This document shows, piece by piece, positions 1,653 through 56,920 of a DNA stretch of 64,000 nucleotides. The stretch comes from an uncultured Ruminococcus sp. (lineage in GTDB: Bacteria; Bacillota; Clostridia; Oscillospirales; CAG-272), in NCBI GenBank assembly GCA_902762505.1, contig CACWOQ010000004.1, positions 2,953 to 66,952 on the forward strand, in the 5' to 3' direction. The notes under the pieces are model-generated. The model was not told where the DNA came from, did no database searches, and worked only from the letters and a program-made list of their open reading frames with translations. Numbering within the stretch: the stretch's first letter is position 1; the number at the start of each line of letters is the position of its first letter. The translations under genes and the position numbers were made by a program.

Positions 1653-2576
1653 TTATTGTTTTTTCTTTTTCCGCAGCGTCCTGATGAGCTGTATGGCGCC
1701 GACGGTCAGAGCCGCCGCTGCCGCCGCGCAGCCTGTTATTATAAACACAAGGCTTCTCACCGGGGCGTTTTTTTTGCGTTCGCTGCCCGTCGTTTCATCC
1801 ACGGTCACGACGGTCGTTCCGGTTTCCGCGTCGGTCTTTGTCGTCCGGCTCTCCGTTTCCGTGTCGGTCACCGTATCAGTCGCGGTCTCGGTGTCCGTAA
1901 CGGTCGTCTCAGGCTCCCGCGTCTCCGTTTCGGTCACGGTCACGGGCTCCGTTTCCGTCTCCGTTTCCGTCTCCGTCCGGGTCGTCTCCGGTGCCGTTGT
2001 TTCCGTCTCCTCACGGGTCGTCTCGGTCACGGTTTCCGTCGGTATATCCGTGTCCGTCACGGTCTCCGTATCAGTCACGGTCTCCGTCTCCGTATCCGGC
2101 GGATCCGTATGCATCATTACGGTGAAAGTCGCGGTATAGGGCGACGCTGCCGCCTCTCTGTCGGCGATGCCGTCGGAAAGAGCCGTCTCGGATATGCCTA
2201 CCGTCGTCTGCTCTCCCTCACGCCCTTCAAGCACGGTGAACGAAAGCCGCATGAGCTCCGCTTTGCCGGAATAAAGCTCGTCGGTGCGGAACAGAAGCGT
2301 GACCGTGCCTTCCCCGGCGGAATAGTACACGGTAAGTCCGGCTTCCGTGCCGGGGACCGCCGAGGTAAGCGAAAGCACGTTTTTGTCGTACGTTATCCTC
2401 GCCCTGCCTCCGCGCATTTCCGTCATATGCGCCGTCACGGTCAGCGTGATCACGGTTTCCGTTATTTCAAGCGGTCCTTCTATCGCAAAGGATCCGTCGT
2501 CCAAAAGCTCGGCTTTTACCGGAAGGCACGCGCCGAGCATTACGAATACAAGCAATACGGCAAATAAACGCTTCAC
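1653..2576 (-). CDS. Membrane-anchored cohesin-like domain protein (signal peptide, cohesin-like beta-sandwich, T/E/P linker, C-terminal TM + KKKKQ)
   Basis: N-terminal signal peptide MKRLFAVLLVFVMLGACLPVKA. ITYDKNVLSL...TVTLLF...LMRLSFTVLEG resembles a cohesin. About 100 aa of TETETV repeats, then a hydrophobic helix and a basic tail. GTG start overlaps the upstream stop (GTGA), with GGAGG 7 nt upstream. Confidence 0.6.
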   Translation of the reverse strand: MKRLFAVLLVFVMLGACLPVKAELLDDGSFAIEGPLEITETVITLTVTAHMTEMRGGRARITYDKNVLSLTSAVPGTEAGLTVYYSAGEGTVTLLFRTDELYSGKAELMRLSFTVLEGREGEQTTVGISETALSDGIADREAAASPYTATFTVMMHTDPPDTETETVTDTETVTDTDIPTETVTETTREETETTAPETTRTETETETETEPVTVTETETREPETTVTDTETATDTVTDTETESRTTKTDAETGTTVVTVDETTGSERKKNAPVRSLVFIITGCAAAAAALTVGAIQLIRTLRKKKKQ

Positions 2577-21851: not shown

Positions 21852-23522
21852 TCATTTCGTTTTCTTCGACGCGGCGACCGCGAGTATCACGAAAAGCACG
21901 ATCAGCGCGATCACGGCGAGCGCCGCGATCAGTATCACCTTTATCACACGCCCAGCGGCGGCGCCTATTGTACCGAGGTCGAGCGTCACGTCCGACGGCT
22001 CATCCGTCTGATTTCCCGGGATTATAACGACAGGCTCCGTGACGTCCGTTTCGGTCTGAGCCGCACCGCTGTCGCCGGGCTCCGTCTCATCCGGCGGAAA
22101 TTCCGCCGTCTCCCTCTCGCCGCATATCAGGCAATAGCGCATACACGTCTTCGGCTCCCACGCCGCGCCTTCGCTTATAACGACCCATTCGCTGAATTCG
22201 TGGACGCATTCCGTTTCCTCACCGGTAAGCGGCGCCGTTACGGGCTCCGTCACGGGCGGGGAGTCTTTATGCTCCGCACGGCAGATGACTGTGCCGATAT
22301 AATCGCCGGAGGGCTTTTTAAGCTCGCCCCCGACGTAGGCGTAGCTCTGCCCCGGCGCAGACGACGTCACCGCAAGCTCATAATCCGGATCGGAATATTC
22401 TGAAAATACGTAATAATTCCCGTTTGCGTGCACCGTTGCGAACAGTGTGACCGTGTCGCCCTTTTTCACGGTCGGCTCCCTGTCAAGCGAAACGCTGTAA
22501 TAACCCGCGTCGGTGACGGTGAGCGTCCCGGCGGCGTCCGGCTTCGCCGTGCCGACGGCCGAGGGATCCTTCAGATTGACGAACAGCTTCGCTTCAAGCA
22601 CGGAACCGGGCTTAGAGGTATAAATCCCCGCGGCGGTGACGGTCAGCTTTTCATTTGCCGTGAATACGTTGACCGCGCCGTACAGCGTTTTATCCGAGGT
22701 GTGGTTCCCGGACAGAAAATCGACCTCCGTATGAGTGAGCACGCGCGCGTCGGAGTCGATCTTAACGCTTGCGGCGTACGCAACTCTGCCGAATTCCGTG
22801 TTATACGAGATATACGCGTAGCCTCCGTCGCCCCAGCCCGTGCCCCAGCTGTTCTTCATTATAAAGGCGCCCGTTCCGGTATCCGTGTATTTCGTATCGT
22901 CCCAGCCGACGAGAAGCAGCTGATGAGACGGCTTCGAATTGTCGAAGCTGAGCGTTCTCGCAACGTGCGTCACGTTGTTGTAGTCGCCTATGAACGCGTC
23001 GCAGCTGACGGCGCCGTATTCCGCGATCCATTCCTTCAGCTTCGCCGTTCTGTCCCTGCGCTGTAATTCCGAAATATCGCGCTCGACAAATCTGTCGATA
23101 TAAGCGAATCTGCCGTACAGAGCCGACACCGGCGCCGAAGACGACGATTCGACCGACGGATACGCGGCGTCGGGCAGCAGACCCTTTCCGGAGACGCCGG
23201 CGAAAAGCGCGTAGTCAAGACTGCCGTAGCATTTGTTCCAGGCGTTTCCGCGGCTGTTTCTGTGTTCGTTGCCGTCAAACTCGGCGCGTGCCATCATGGG
23301 CGCCGAAAAAACGGATGAGCCGGAGGGAGCCTGACCGCTTTTCACGGCGGCGATGCTGAGCATATCCGCTCCGGCGTAAGCCCAGCAGAGCGGATTGTTT
23401 TTCTGGTTGAGCACCGGCGTTTCGGCATCCGTCCTGTATTTATCCGGCAAAGCGGCGGCGGACGCCGCAAAAAGCGACGCCGTAAGGATCAGTATCATAA
23501 AAGCGGATATTGTTTTCTTCAT
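21852..23522 (-). CDS. Papain-family (C1) cysteine peptidase, secreted, with a C-terminal TM anchor
   Basis: Signal peptide. Catalytic Cys context NQKNNPLCWAYAG. MKNSWGTGWGDGGYAYISY. A four-Cys cluster (CVHEF...CMRYCLIC) near the C-terminus, then a TM helix + SKKTK. Confidence 0.8.
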   Translation of the reverse strand: MKKTISAFMILILTASLFAASAAALPDKYRTDAETPVLNQKNNPLCWAYAGADMLSIAAVKSGQAPSGSSVFSAPMMARAEFDGNEHRNSRGNAWNKCYGSLDYALFAGVSGKGLLPDAAYPSVESSSSAPVSALYGRFAYIDRFVERDISELQRRDRTAKLKEWIAEYGAVSCDAFIGDYNNVTHVARTLSFDNSKPSHQLLLVGWDDTKYTDTGTGAFIMKNSWGTGWGDGGYAYISYNTEFGRVAYAASVKIDSDARVLTHTEVDFLSGNHTSDKTLYGAVNVFTANEKLTVTAAGIYTSKPGSVLEAKLFVNLKDPSAVGTAKPDAAGTLTVTDAGYYSVSLDREPTVKKGDTVTLFATVHANGNYYVFSEYSDPDYELAVTSSAPGQSYAYVGGELKKPSGDYIGTVICRAEHKDSPPVTEPVTAPLTGEETECVHEFSEWVVISEGAAWEPKTCMRYCLICGERETAEFPPDETEPGDSGAAQTETDVTEPVVIIPGNQTDEPSDVTLDLGTIGAAAGRVIKVILIAALAVIALIVLFVILAVAASKKTK

Positions 23523-27314: not shown

Positions 27315-27890
27315 ATGAAAAAACTCACTGTCATCCTGCTCGCCGTCGTTTTCACGGCAACAATTTTCGCTGTCAGCGCAAACGCCGCCGCCACCGTAAA
27401 GCAGTGCAACTACGACGCCGGTACGACTACCGGTGAAGACTACTATTTCAGAGGCTGGGTCATCGTCGAGGGCGATACGGTCGTTGACCTCGGCTACCGT
27501 ATCGACGACGAGGCTCCCGTTTTCAGCGTCGCCGACAACAGACCCGACGTATCCGATTACTTCAAGATCGATCCGTCCGTCGTAGGCGGCTTCGATTTCC
27601 ATCTCAAGCCCGGCGACCTTGCCGAGGGCGAGCACATAATCCACGTAGTCGTAAAGACCGCGGACGGCTCCGTTCTTGACATCAACAACGCGACCGACGA
27701 CGGATATACCCTCATCGGCACGAAGAAGGCCGAGCCCGCCGACGAGCCGACCGAGCCCGCCGTGAACACGGAGCCCGAGCAGCCCGGGCAGCCCGAGAAC
27801 CCGAAGACGTCCGACGCGTCCGTTGCGGCGATAGCCGCCGTCTGCTGCATCGCGCTTGCGGGAGCTTTCGTACTGAAAAAATCGAAGTGA
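27315..27890 (+). CDS. Secreted surface protein with a C-terminal NPKTSD sorting-signal-like tail
   Basis: AAAGGAG RBS and a signal peptide ending ANA. C-terminus PENPKTSDASVAAIAAVCCIALAGAFVLKKSK. Confidence 0.6.
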   Translation: MKKLTVILLAVVFTATIFAVSANAAATVKQCNYDAGTTTGEDYYFRGWVIVEGDTVVDLGYRIDDEAPVFSVADNRPDVSDYFKIDPSVVGGFDFHLKPGDLAEGEHIIHVVVKTADGSVLDINNATDDGYTLIGTKKAEPADEPTEPAVNTEPEQPGQPENPKTSDASVAAIAAVCCIALAGAFVLKKSK

Positions 27891-36930: not shown

Positions 36931-37605
36931 ATGAATTATGTAAAAAAAGCAGTAATATGCTTAGTTTCCATTACAATAGTATTGTCTGTCGCGTGTTGTG
37001 CATACGAAACGACGAATAAATATGACGGCAGCATAAAATGTGCGTTTCAACTATATCTGGTGATGTATCAGGATTGTGCAAATAAGCCATATGTTGAAAA
37101 TACTGACATAAGTATTGACGCTGATACGGAAGACTACGGAAAATGTAAAGCGTGGGAATTCACAGAGGATCTGTCAACTCCCGAAAAATTCAATGATTAT
37201 ACGTCGTCATTCTTTGACGATAACGTTTCCGCAAAGGCTTTTCATGAAACGATGTATCTTAAACTGATTGACGGAAAAATCGTATTGCTTGAGTTAGGAC
37301 CGCAATATATACCGTTTCAATATGACGAATCTGCGAAAACTTACATCATTGCAGAAACAGATAATACAATAACTTTGAAACGTGCAATCCTGCATATTAA
37401 CGGAAATGGCGACAGATCTCAAATTGATTACACCTTTATAATAAATAAAACAAATCAAAAAATCTGCGGAGGCACATTTGTTGAAAAAATGCTTGAAATC
37501 GATGCCGACACCCCTCAAACCTCCGACGCGCCAGTGATCGCTGTATGTGCTCTGACGCTTTCCGCCGCGGCGGCAGCGGTGCTGATAAAGAAGAAAAAAG
37601 TCTGA
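36931..37605 (+). CDS. Small surface (lipo)protein with a C-terminal TPQTSD sorting-signal-like tail
   Basis: ATG at 36931 with GGAGGA upstream. Signal/lipobox LSVACC. C-terminus DTPQTSDAPVIAVCALTLSAAAAAVLIKKKKV. Confidence 0.6.
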   Translation: MNYVKKAVICLVSITIVLSVACCAYETTNKYDGSIKCAFQLYLVMYQDCANKPYVENTDISIDADTEDYGKCKAWEFTEDLSTPEKFNDYTSSFFDDNVSAKAFHETMYLKLIDGKIVLLELGPQYIPFQYDESAKTYIIAETDNTITLKRAILHINGNGDRSQIDYTFIINKTNQKICGGTFVEKMLEIDADTPQTSDAPVIAVCALTLSAAAAAVLIKKKKV

Positions 37606-37900: not shown

Positions 37901-38713
37901 ATGAAAACCAAAAGAATTGTCTCGCTGGTCCTTTCAGTCATAACGCTTTTTTTGACATTACCGTCCTTTTCCGTTGCAACCGATGGATTGACCATATCTG
38001 AAGCGGCGAGGCTTGTTCGCGGATTTGAAGAAGCATATCTTATGACTGTCGAGTCAAACAAGGCGCCTCTTTTCTGGCAAAAGGATAAAAACATAAGTTT
38101 AAGCTACGAATACCGATTATCGAATGACAATCCGCAGTATGAGGCAGACAACGTTGAAAGCGGCGCCAAGTTATATATGTGCATAATGGAAACGTATGAC
38201 GAACTCCTGCAAAAACTGAAGCTTACGTTTACCGACGAGATGTCGAAAAAGATACTGAACGACAGTCGGTTCATCTATATCGACGGTAAAGCATATTATC
38301 CGAGAATCTTTTTCGACCCCGGTAATTTTTACGTTATTTCCGACGATGAGAATACCGAGGTTCCACTTGAAGAGCGTATTACGATTGTTGATAACGGAGA
38401 CGGTAGGTATACCGTTCATTACAACTATTGGGCGCCTGTCGAGGATGATAATGAAAACCATAATTCTGACAAATGGCTGTTATCCGATGCAAGAGACGGT
38501 CAAATAGACATCGTAAAAACAGACGACGGATTCAGAGTGTATAAGTATGACGGACTGTTATTCAAATCCGATCCTTTAGCGGACAGAGGCTTACGTAAAA
38601 CGCGTTTATTGAGCGAATCCCCTCAAACCTCTGACGCGCCGGTGATCGCGGTATGCGCGCTGGCGCTTTCCGCCGCAGCGGCGGCAGTCGTTCTTCGGAA
38701 AAAGCGCGGCTGA
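37901..38713 (+). CDS. Small secreted surface protein with a C-terminal SPQTSD sorting-signal-like tail
   Basis: ATG at 37901 with AAGGAGAA upstream. Signal peptide ...LPSFSVA. C-terminus ESPQTSDAPVIAVCALALSAAAAAVVLRKKRG. Confidence 0.6.
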   Translation: MKTKRIVSLVLSVITLFLTLPSFSVATDGLTISEAARLVRGFEEAYLMTVESNKAPLFWQKDKNISLSYEYRLSNDNPQYEADNVESGAKLYMCIMETYDELLQKLKLTFTDEMSKKILNDSRFIYIDGKAYYPRIFFDPGNFYVISDDENTEVPLEERITIVDNGDGRYTVHYNYWAPVEDDNENHNSDKWLLSDARDGQIDIVKTDDGFRVYKYDGLLFKSDPLADRGLRKTRLLSESPQTSDAPVIAVCALALSAAAAAVVLRKKRG

Positions 38714-43186: not shown

Positions 43187-44521
43187 ATGAAAAAACTTAT
43201 ACAGGCAGCGGCGCTTCTCATCTGCGCGCTGCTTCTCTGCCCGCACGTGTCGGCGGAAGGCGGCGCCGTCATGCTCGGCGACAGGGGCGACCTCATAACG
43301 GCGCGCGAAAGTCTCGACGGGCTGGGGCTGAACAAAGCCCATTCCGGCGAGGAAATAACGGTTTGGGAGCTTTCGTTCGACAAGGGCCTGGGCTTTCATT
43401 GCCTGCCTGACAAAGACGCTTATCTTGAATTCGACATTTCGTCGCTTAACAAAAAATATTTTTCCGCCACGGTCGGCGTTCTGCAGAAAGCGTCGTATTA
43501 TATCGAACTCGGCGATATCGCGTTCAGCGTCTACGGTGACGGAGAGCTCCTCACAAAGACCGACGTCATATCGTGGAACATGAAGCCGGCTTATATCTGC
43601 GTCAACGTCGAGGGCGTCAAAACTCTCCGCCTCGTCGAAAGCAACGGCGGCAACTACGCCTGCGACGCCGGAGTCTGGGGCGACGCAATGCTGACGGACG
43701 AGAAACCGGAGGCTCCCGAATGGACGAAGCCGAAGGGCGGCTTCGACCGGGACAAAACAGATCTGCCGCAGCCGGCGGAGGCGGTTTCGGGCGATATCGC
43801 CTACGTGAGCGACCTTTATTTTCTCGACAGCAAAACGTATTCCGGCAACGTGGTGGGGCGCGACTGCAACACCGCGAACGAGATAATTTTCTCAACGGAC
43901 GGTAAATTTTTCAGCAAGGGCGTGGGCTTCCACGCCTCCTCGGGTGAATACACCTCGTTCTGCGACGTGAACATAGAGGGGCTGGGCTTCACGAAATTCG
44001 CCGCGTACGTCGGCGTCTGCGAGACGCTTTCGCCGCACGACATCTCCATGGCTGCGGTCAGATTCGCGCTTTTCGGCGACGGTGTCAAGCTCTGGGAAAG
44101 CGGAGTGCAGAAATACGGTCAGCCGATGAGTCCGATGACGGCTGACATAACCGGCGTAAGGGTCCTGCGTCTCGCCGTCTGCGGCGCGCCTTCGATCAGC
44201 GGCGCGTGGGCTACGTGGGGCGGCGCGGTGATGAGCAAGAGCGGACAGATACCCGACGACAAAATATACAGCGAACAGAACATAGAAGATATTTTCGACA
44301 CCTCGGTCCCCGACAGTCAGACGGAGCCTCAGACGTCCGCGGTAGAAGACACGGAGCCTGAAAGCGAACCGCAGACCGTGACGGACGCGCCCGAGACTGC
44401 GCCTGTCACGGAAAAACGCGGAGGCTCGACAAAGCTGCCCGTGATCGTCGCCGTTTGCGCGGTTGTCTGTGCGGCTGTCGTATGCGCCGCGGTTTTCGCG
44501 GTCAGAAAGAAAAGAAAGTGA
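43187..44521 (+). CDS. Secreted protein with tandem NPCBM/NEW2-like carbohydrate-binding modules and a C-terminal TM anchor
   Basis: Signal peptide. Two repeats of the pattern ...KG(L/V)GFH...(F/A)(S/A)A(T/Y)VGV...(I/V)(A/R)F(S/A)(V/L)(Y/F)GDG..L, with YVSDLYFLD before the second. Tail LPVIVAVCAVVCAAVVCAAVFAVRKKRK. Confidence 0.65.
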   Translation: MKKLIQAAALLICALLLCPHVSAEGGAVMLGDRGDLITARESLDGLGLNKAHSGEEITVWELSFDKGLGFHCLPDKDAYLEFDISSLNKKYFSATVGVLQKASYYIELGDIAFSVYGDGELLTKTDVISWNMKPAYICVNVEGVKTLRLVESNGGNYACDAGVWGDAMLTDEKPEAPEWTKPKGGFDRDKTDLPQPAEAVSGDIAYVSDLYFLDSKTYSGNVVGRDCNTANEIIFSTDGKFFSKGVGFHASSGEYTSFCDVNIEGLGFTKFAAYVGVCETLSPHDISMAAVRFALFGDGVKLWESGVQKYGQPMSPMTADITGVRVLRLAVCGAPSISGAWATWGGAVMSKSGQIPDDKIYSEQNIEDIFDTSVPDSQTEPQTSAVEDTEPESEPQTVTDAPETAPVTEKRGGSTKLPVIVAVCAVVCAAVVCAAVFAVRKKRK

Positions 44522-55993: not shown

Positions 55994-56920
55994 ATGAAAA
56001 AAGTACTTTCAATAGTCCTTTGCACGCTTCTCTGCGCGGCTCTCGCTCTGACTTCGTTCGCAGCCAGCCACGCCGAATCCGCTAAAGCCGGCGAAGAGCT
56101 CTTCGCGGATGACTTTTCCGGTGACTCCCTCGACGCTGAAAAGTGGGATGCATGGGCCGGCTACGCAGTAACCGACGGCAAGCTCCATCTCGGCCACGGT
56201 GCAAGCTGGATCGATTCCTCGCCCGGCGCCAACACCAAGGTCACGTTCAAAAACTATATCGCAGAATTCGACTTCGCGGGCGACGGCAGAGACTGCTACT
56301 ACGGCTTCGGTCTCCGCACTCTCACCAGCCATACCGCCGCTTCTTTGTTCAACGGCGGCAGATTCGGTGTTCCGTCCGCGGCTGAAACGTCCACCGGTAT
56401 CGCGATAGACATCTTCGGCGCCGGCAACTCCACCCTCAACGGCGCAGCTCTCGGTATCACGTTCTGCAACGGCGGTGAAAACGGCTCCGCTCCGGCCCTC
56501 TCGATCCCGTACGCAAACGGCTTCGACGGCAAGGCCGAGACCCACTTCAAGGTAGTTGACTCCGGCGAAAAGATCACGATCTACGCCGCGAACAACGAGA
56601 TCGCGACCATCGAGCTTTCCGGTCTGTCCGACGGCAGCTACACCAAAGCCGCCGTATTCGGACCCGACGGTGCTTCCCTCGGTTCCTTCGACGTAACCGT
56701 CGCTGAAGAAGGCGCTCTCGCTTTCTATCAGAGAAACGACCACATCACCGTTGACAACCTGAAGGTCAACGCCATCGCGGAAGAAGCCGGCGAACAGCCC
56801 GGCGGCGATACTCCCGCGGATCCCGTAAATCCGGGTACTGCCGACGCTTCCGTCATAGCTGTCGCGGCTGTCGCCTGCGTAGCTCTTGCCGGTGTCGTTG
56901 TTGCGAAAAAGGTAAGATAA
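55994..56920 (+). CDS. Secreted DUF1080/LamG-like (concanavalin-type lectin fold) protein with a C-terminal NPGTAD sorting-signal-like tail
   Basis: AAAGGAGAA RBS and a signal peptide ...TSFAAS. FADDFSGDSLDAEKWDAWAGYAVTDGKLHL is a DUF1080-like opening. C-terminus VNPGTADASVIAVAAVACVALAGVVVAKKVR. Confidence 0.6.
   Translation: MKKVLSIVLCTLLCAALALTSFAASHAESAKAGEELFADDFSGDSLDAEKWDAWAGYAVTDGKLHLGHGASWIDSSPGANTKVTFKNYIAEFDFAGDGRDCYYGFGLRTLTSHTAASLFNGGRFGVPSAAETSTGIAIDIFGAGNSTLNGAALGITFCNGGENGSAPALSIPYANGFDGKAETHFKVVDSGEKITIYAANNEIATIELSGLSDGSYTKAAVFGPDGASLGSFDVTVAEEGALAFYQRNDHITVDNLKVNAIAEEAGEQPGGDTPADPVNPGTADASVIAVAAVACVALAGVVVAKKVR

Follow-up and report, generated by a model that had tools for sequence, protein, structure and literature searches.

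A putative class B sortase sorting signal with Ala or Ser after the core Thr in an uncultured rumen genus of Clostridia

SrtB of Bacillus anthracis recognizes the signal D-NPKTG-D-E of IsdC and loses most of its activity without the Asp at P5 or the Asp at P2' of DNPKTGDE (PMC11987632). This class B sortase is specialised: its one or two substrates function in haem uptake and are encoded by neighboring genes. Clostridioides difficile has a single housekeeping class B sortase that acts on unlinked surface proteins bearing SPKTGD, PPKTGD, or SPQTGD, all with Asp at P2', and cuts between Thr and Gly (PMC4155245). Several class B and class D sortases tolerate or prefer a residue other than Gly at P1', directly behind the scissile Thr or Ser, as in NPQTN of Staphylococcus aureus, NAKTN and NPKSS of Listeria monocytogenes, and LPNTA, the class D signal of B. 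anthracis (PMC3208642; PMC4155245). Ala also occupies P1' in NSKTA of BasL/IsdX2, the second putative substrate of B. anthracis SrtB (PMC3208642). In Lactiplantibacillus plantarum, the motif has shifted species-wide to LPQTxE, with no fixed residue at P1' and an acidic one at P2' (PMC3619620). For Ruminococcus-like Clostridia, the 30-position C-terminal model NF033846 Rumino_NPXTG ("NPXTG-anchored protein") describes an N-P-x-T core followed by a conserved helix and a basic tail. Here we analyze a related C-terminal tail found on four secreted proteins encoded in a 64,000-nucleotide stretch of DNA, hereafter the window, from an uncultured Ruminococcus sp. (GenBank assembly GCA_902762505.1, here G000; contig CACWOQ010000004.1, here C4:2953-66952), and on further proteins throughout its genus.

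The tails share with the IsdC signal the N-P-x-T core, an often acidic P5, and the Asp at P2'. They share with Rumino_NPXTG the same core, conserved helix, and basic tail, but carry Ala or Ser in place of Gly at P1', and the tails of this genus would go unnamed by that model. Two window tails, SPQTSD and TPQTSD, match the C. difficile signals except at P1'; C. difficile, in contrast, has kept Gly at this position and does not conserve the helix. The first-pass annotation of the window drew a parallel with LPQTxE of L. plantarum, which differs in its class A sortase, its L-P-Q-T core, and its Glu rather than Asp at P2'. The non-Gly signals of the other species all come from Bacilli, not rumen Clostridia, and none contains the T-[A/S]-D-A-[S/A]-V consensus or the ALAG helix described below. 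Whereas B. anthracis SrtB is dedicated to neighboring substrates, the sortase found here is the only one detected, is unlinked to its presumed substrates, and would serve about 23 proteins, nearly all with Ala or Ser at P1'. We describe a lineage-specific variant of a known sortase B system, not a new sorting pathway.

We favor, with a probability of about 0.72, a model in which the tails are substrates of this single class B sortase, are cut after Thr, and become attached to peptidoglycan. Carriers would be exported by the Sec pathway through their signal peptides and retained in the membrane by the C-terminal helix and Lys-rich tail. The housekeeping sortase encoded on contig C24 would then cut after the Thr of [D/E/S/T]-N-P-x-T, ahead of [A/S]-D-A, and transfer the cut protein to peptidoglycan. 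P1' appears to be loosely specified in the family (G, S, A, N, even F), and in this genus it would have relaxed to Ala or Ser in nearly all tails. The Asp at P2' would be the conserved determinant, as has been shown experimentally for B. anthracis SrtB. The evidence for this model includes the presence of a single SrtB, the enrichment of the motif at C-termini across the genome and the genus, homologous tails with Gly that reach or come within 0.2 bits of the NPXTG cut-off, and Cna_B, FctA, and cohesin proteins among the carriers. The first-pass annotation had proposed an SrtB-like or clostridial sorting signal in which Gly is replaced by Ser or Ala and D-A-x-V is conserved; the analysis below supports that view.

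The source genome is a 2.64 Mb draft (53% GC, 102 contigs, 89.7% completeness). A six-frame scan identified 22 open reading frames (ORFs) with a C-terminus composed of P-x-T-[A/S]-D, a ~20-residue helix, and a KK-type tail, as well as a single ORF with a PPKTGE ending. By a simple heuristic for signal peptides (an MKK-type n-region followed by a hydrophobic core), most of the tail-bearing ORFs that are complete at the 5' end have an export signal. The first-pass annotation had named C-terminal enrichment of the motif as a check on its proposal. Among all six-frame ORFs of at least 100 amino acids, 21 of 61 P.T[AS]D matches lie 27–36 residues from the stop codon against an expectation of 1.8 (Poisson P = 6e-16), and the motif Pro falls 29–34 residues from the stop in 21 cases. 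The same ORFs contain no NP.TG near any C-terminus. About 68 other proteins of the genome lack the motif but have a C-terminal helix plus KKKK. Identity between helices is 41–51% among the motif-bearing tails, compared with 16% among the other C-terminal anchors. Motif and conserved helix thus occur together, which bears out the earlier argument that the motif is not a mere by-product of tail-anchoring. That argument had cited three window proteins at 1653-2576 (minus strand), 21852-23522 (minus strand), and 43187-44521, and each of these indeed has a transmembrane (TM) helix and a K-rich tail and lacks the motif.

The tails fall into a main class, a minor class, and singletons. The main class, [D/E/S/T]-NPxT[A/S]D-[A/V]-S-V-I-A-I-A-A-V-A-C-[I/V]-A-L-A-G-V-V-V-A-K-K-V-[K/R], comprises ~15 genes that include the first and fourth window genes. 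The minor class, [S/T/N]PQTSD-APVIAVCALALSAAAAAVVL-RKKRG, comprises the second and third window genes and a remnant on contig C56. Singleton tails contain SPETSD, NPVTADG, PPQTAD, and IPKTAD.

Residue preferences were tabulated across the genus. Twelve species yielded 80 motif-type tails, 75 of which fit P.[TS][ASGN][DE]; the remaining five (EPSPTSD and similar) have other spacing and were left out. P3 is Pro in all 75 tails by construction. Asn occupies P4 in 71 tails, P1 is Thr in 68 and Ser in 7, and P1' is Ala in 52, Ser in 17, and Gly in 6. P2' is Asp in 74 of the 75, P3' is Ala in 64 and Val in 7, and P5 is often Asp or Glu. The helix is also constrained: one Leu is present in 73 of 75 tails, a Gly in 70, and a Cys in 50. 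Genes 1 through 4 of the window have N, T, S, and N at P4 and S, S, S, and A at P1'; none of their tails has Gly or Asn at P1'. Judged from these residues, P1' is the sole departure from the extended SrtB motif. Two genomes of the genus, G005 and G010, additionally contain degenerate cores (NPxSGD, NPPSSD, and EPSPTSD) in which P1 is Ser or the spacing of the Pro is shifted. These tails keep D-A-A and the ALAG helix (loci L012, L013, L073-L076, and L099-L102).

The first-pass annotation had named as a second check that the genome encode a sortase. One Pfam sortase match exists in the genome, a class B enzyme of 329 amino acids encoded on the minus strand of contig C24 (L001:1477-2466). The window lies on C4, and the statement that it holds no sortase gene is accurate. 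The C24 sortase scores 150.2–151.4 bits against the TIGR03064 class B sortase model, just short of the equivalog cut-off of 153.75. Of the other 11 species in the genus, 8 have orthologues that pass this model at 156–180 bits. All 15 of its best matches in the PDB are class B or SrtB-family enzymes, headed by B. anthracis SrtB (2oqw/1rz2; E = 1e-32). The His, Cys, and Arg of the active site, found in YGHNM, TLSTC, and MRWA, are intact and align with the conserved residues of relatives and of B. anthracis SrtB. The closest named relatives of the C24 enzyme are encoded in metagenome-assembled genomes from the rumen (buffalo, yak, and an "uncultured Ruminococcus sp."). Its gene is located between genes for a GT2-like glycosyltransferase and an SpoVG-like protein (L001 = G000:C24:3811-7302), and no substrate gene adjoins it, an arrangement like that of the single housekeeping SrtB of C. 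difficile (PMC4155245). The enzyme contains an extension of ~135 residues before the catalytic domain, made up of a cytoplasmic head, a TM helix, and a linker. Immediately after the catalytic Cys, sortases of this genus read CTVR, whereas those of sister genera read CTN, CNY, or CSY. We considered and rejected a specificity-determining change in the sortase, as no residue in the alignment of the genus and its sister genera could be tied to P1'.

A profile built from 14 tails was used to examine the phylogenetic spread of the signal. It matches all 12 genomes of the genus, with 7–18 copies in each. A first sample of 13 other genera of the family gave no match; a wider sample of 201 family genomes revealed homologous tails in 12 further genera. 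These tails contain NPETGD, NPNTGD, NPATSD, NPATAD, APQTSD, NPGTGD, NPDTSD, NPDTND, APSTAD, APDTGD, GPSTGD, and APQTFD. P2' is Asp in every one examined, P1' is G, S, A, N, or F, and most retain the ..ALAGVVV.KK.R helix. Individual genomes mix residues at P1': G135 (98% complete, one SrtB match) contains both NPNTGD and NPATSD, G004 contains TPETGD and NPGTAD, and G188 contains NPDTSD and NPETGD, the latter two genomes with one Pfam sortase match each. This mixture argues for a sortase tolerant of small P1' residues rather than for a specificity switch. No such switch appears to be needed, because Gly, Ala, and Ser substrates occur together in genomes with a single detected sortase. Each of the 12 genomes of the genus encodes SrtB, as does each of the 34 tail-bearing genomes tested, and the five SrtB-negative family genomes of the first sample contain no tail. 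G135, which had seemed to lack SrtB in a Pfam-only scan (17 bits), was dismissed as a counter-example when the TIGR03064 scan revealed a 165-bit SrtB.

Homologous tails from sister taxa that carry Gly further support a sorting function for the Ala/Ser tails. The cut-offs of the relevant curated models are 23.5 bits for NF033846 Rumino_NPXTG, 18.15 bits for TIGR03063 srtB_target, and 15.9 bits for TIGR01167 LPXTG_anchor. Two Gly-bearing tails reach 25.1 and 23.3 bits against Rumino_NPXTG and lie above the LPXTG cut-off. In the source genome, the tail ending in PPKTGE passes TIGR01167, as do the PPQTAD and IPKTAD tails of two Cna_B proteins despite the Ala at P1'. Pfam searches revealed three Cna_B domains plus an FctA (Spy0128-like) domain in the PPQTAD carrier, three Cna_B domains in the IPKTAD carrier, and CBM6/35 in the NPVTAD carrier. 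A protein of 657 amino acids with a signal peptide (G000:C3:3367-5373) combines an N-terminal cohesin domain (PF00963) with an NPKTSD tail. Cna_B/FctA proteins and cohesin-containing anchoring scaffoldins such as ScaE of Ruminococcus flavefaciens are established sortase substrates (PMC4081043; PMC11557425). By its domain layout, the C3 protein matches the way in which ScaE joins cellulosome to wall, and it is a ScaE-like candidate wall anchor for cellulosome-type complexes. Several carriers share a domain at about 25–45% identity, and carrier bodies are therefore not all unrelated.

Other loci that encode the tail have features of their own. The two Cna_B-repeat proteins (G000:C60:2-1270 and C65:11464-12288) reach a contig end or an upstream stop codon and resemble pilin or adhesin subunits, but the genome yielded no class C (pilus) sortase. 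On contig C46 (G000:C46:10550-15527), five tandem genes on the same strand have identical tail ends, NPGTADASVIAIAAVACIALAGVVVAKKV[K/R], and equivalent arrays are present in G004, G007, G009, and G011. The C56 remnant (G000:C56:17937-18140) is an ORF of 67 amino acids that ends in ...RGLCKTRLTGSPPQTSDSPVLAVCAPALSSALAAVVLKKKRV. It is homologous to the end of the third window gene and is probably a truncated or decayed paralog.

The motif, its enrichment at C-termini, its phylogenetic spread, the selection on the peptide described below, the intact sortase, and the co-occurrence of that sortase with the tails are matters of observation. Several points weigh against the sortase model. Cleavage, the cut site, and wall attachment are steps that we infer. 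The window tails and the main-class Ala/Ser tails fall under every curated sorting-signal cut-off: where shown, Rumino_NPXTG gives the genus tails 11–16 bits (best E 5.8e-4 among 14), srtB_target gives main-class tails 14.7 bits, and the best LPXTG E value is 0.12. SrtB of C. difficile leaves two proteins with good SPxTG motifs unprocessed in vivo (PMC5569036), and the motif alone is therefore no proof of anchoring. The sortase alignment contains no obvious change that would explain the preference at P1', and an assembly that is 89.7% complete could have missed a second sortase or a different enzyme. SrtB is present in 35 of 41 genomes of the order, so its co-occurrence with the tails discriminates weakly. 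Given this frequency and the non-independence of related genomes, the co-occurrence is supportive, not decisive. Finally, such strong conservation of the helix is unusual in a sortase signal, and a reader other than the sortase, or besides it, could be involved.

The alternative that survives best, which we consider possible but unlikely, holds that the tails are uncleaved C-terminal membrane anchors and that NPxT[A/S]D is only a conserved linker next to the membrane, passed on as part of a shuffled tail module. Tail-anchoring by a helix plus KKKK is common in this genome, as the ~68 other proteins attest, and both the failure of main-class tails to reach any curated sortase-signal cut-off and the unprocessed C. 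difficile proteins (PMC5569036) speak for such anchors. A linker, however, would not be expected to lie at a fixed distance from the stop codon or to preserve N-P-x-T-x-D unchanged when synonymous divergence is close to saturation. The 29-residue tails of nine dispersed main-class paralogs have an amino-acid identity of 0.72, whereas identity at four-fold degenerate sites is 0.37 and that expected from composition is 0.29. The adjacent PQTSD tails of window genes 2 and 3 agree at 24 of 32 residues and at 72 of 96 nucleotides, with 11 synonymous differences in the 24 conserved codons. A conserved peptide at near-saturated synonymous sites indicates from these codon comparisons that the tail, helix included, is under purifying selection. 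Three further observations speak against the anchor hypothesis: the same tail occurs on proteins of the Cna_B/FctA and cohesin types, known as sortase substrates in other organisms; homologues with Gly reach or nearly reach sortase-signal cut-offs; and the tails were found in SrtB-bearing genomes only.

Conservation of the helix raises two further possibilities. It is tempting to speculate that SrtB recognition is independent of P1' and that the Asp at P2' is read together with the conserved ...AAVAC[I/V]ALAG... helix inside the membrane, a proposal we regard as doubtful. If true, such two-part recognition would be closer to exosortase and rhombosortase domains than to the classic LPXTG signal, and the conserved released C-peptide might have its own role, for example in feedback on anchoring. 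We consider it improbable that the sortase is uninvolved and that an unrecognized enzyme, an intramembrane protease or exosortase-like protein, reads the ..AAVAC[I/V]ALAG.. helix and the Asp. The helix residues tabulated above and the 41–51% versus 16% identity show a degree of conservation far greater than that of typical LPXTG signals and reminiscent of PEP-CTERM and GlyGly-CTERM type domains, and the genome is incomplete. Against such an enzyme, the motif fits the extended SrtB recognition sequence, and its P1' residue interchanges with Gly in homologues at or near sortase-signal cut-offs. Searches of the 89.7% complete source genome for exosortase (PF09721; E<=1) and rhomboid (PF01694; E<=0.01) gave no match and no candidate enzyme was identified; we accordingly set aside an exosortase or rhombosortase system, whose cognate enzyme was not found. 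Scores against GVDTG_CTERM, PGAP-CTERM, Loki-CTERM, GPS-CTERM, and Firmicu-CTERM were sub-threshold noise, and membership of the tails in these families was likewise rejected.

It is very improbable, and already largely refuted by the synonymous-site data, that the tails resemble each other only because gene ends were recently duplicated or converted while the peptide was not under selection: the C46 tandem tails, with a four-fold identity of 0.75, stand alone among the copies compared in sharing synonymous sites, a pattern that suggests recent duplication or local gene conversion, whereas the dispersed paralogs (0.37 versus 0.29) and the adjacent PQTSD tails (11 of 24 codons differing) led us to reject gene conversion as the cause of dispersed-tail identity, and the tail is kept across 12 species and 12 other genera.

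The four window proteins illustrate both tail classes. Translation reproduces exactly the C-terminal peptides reported in the first-pass annotation at 27792-27887, 37507-37602, 38615-38710, and 56825-56917. These are the C-termini of ORFs 27315-27890, 36838/36931-37605, 37856/37901-38713, and 55994-56920, each of which begins with a signal-peptide-like sequence by the heuristic described above, as the annotation had stated. No family scored above its cut-off for any of the four proteins in Pfam or NCBIfam. Gene 1 (27315..27890, plus strand) encodes a secreted protein of 191 amino acids with the signal peptide MKKLTVILLAVVFTATIFAVSANA. Its body matches no Pfam or NCBIfam family, and homologues in public sources are named "hypothetical protein [Clostridia bacterium]". 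The core motif N-P-K-T-S-D, from P4 to P2', occupies 27798..27815 (plus strand), with the predicted cut between T and S, and is followed by the hydrophobic helix ASVAAIAAVCCIALAGAFVL and the basic tail KKSK (27816..27887, plus strand). Gene 4 (55994..56920, plus strand) encodes a secreted protein of 308 amino acids with the signal peptide MKKVLSIVLCTLLCAALALTSFA and no family match. It ends in a main-class consensus tail, N-P-G-T-A-D, with the helix ASVIAVAAVACVALAGVVVA and then KKVR (56828..56917, plus strand).

Genes 2 and 3 carry the minor PQTSD tail. Gene 2 (36931..37605, plus strand) encodes a secreted protein of 224 amino acids that likely starts at ATG 36931, which is preceded by GGAGG (Shine-Dalgarno). 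Its tail consists of T-P-Q-T-S-D, the helix APVIAVCALTLSAAAAAVLI, and KKKKV (37510..37602, plus strand). Gene 3 (37901..38713, plus strand) encodes a secreted protein of ~270 amino acids that likely starts at ATG 37901, preceded by AGGAG (Shine-Dalgarno), and ends in S-P-Q-T-S-D, the helix APVIAVCALALSAAAAAVVL, and RKKRG (38618..38710, plus strand). Both bodies weakly resemble the IseA family of DL-endopeptidase inhibitors, the match of gene 3 to PF16800 lying under the cut-off (PF16800, 21 bits with a cut-off of 29.9; NF058588, 15.6 bits), and the two genes are positioned after a large peptidase gene. The bodies of genes 2 and 3 are low in GC (36–42%), whereas their tails are 58–67% GC and the genome 53%. 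Within the window, BLASTP gave no match among the four proteins at E<=1e-5, but the description of the bodies as otherwise unrelated needs correction: the domain of gene 1 recurs at 27–45% identity in several tail-bearing proteins encoded elsewhere in the genome.

A second class of tail, K/G-x-[N/D/K]-T-G-[L/I/V/A]-I-[I/V]-G-I-I-A...KKKK, is present on approximately nine large secreted proteins. Examples are encoded in the source genome on C71 (6514-9764), C78:422-1906, C12:32775-35663, and C5:30987-32861, and at loci L011, L034, and L041 of the same genus. This class has no Pro-x-Thr-x-Asp core and falls under every NCBIfam cut-off, including that of GVDTG_CTERM. It may represent a plain anchor in which the start of the helix is conserved, or a further signal that current models do not cover. 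We rejected these NTG-LIIGII plus KKKK tails as further sortase substrates, as they have neither the Pro-x-Thr core nor the Asp and no model supports them, and left them as plain anchors.

Searches of the literature did not find NPGTAD, NPXTAD, NPKTSD, PQTSD, NPXTA, or NPXTS in the context of sortases, and a search on class B sortase in Ruminococcus returned nothing relevant. The curated LPXTG, NPXTG, and srtB_target models miss these tails and the carriers appear publicly as "hypothetical protein"; the wall-anchored surface proteome of a whole uncultured rumen genus is therefore invisible. This hidden proteome would include a ScaE-like cohesin anchor, CBM proteins, and pilin-like adhesins. 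A hidden Markov model for xPxT[G/A/S/N]D plus the ALAG helix would mend the gap in annotation. The natural variation at P1' (G, A, S, N, and F, with P2' always Asp) supports the biochemical evidence that SrtB reads beyond the pentapeptide. It also indicates that SrtB enzymes may accept non-Gly nucleophiles in sortase-mediated ligation.

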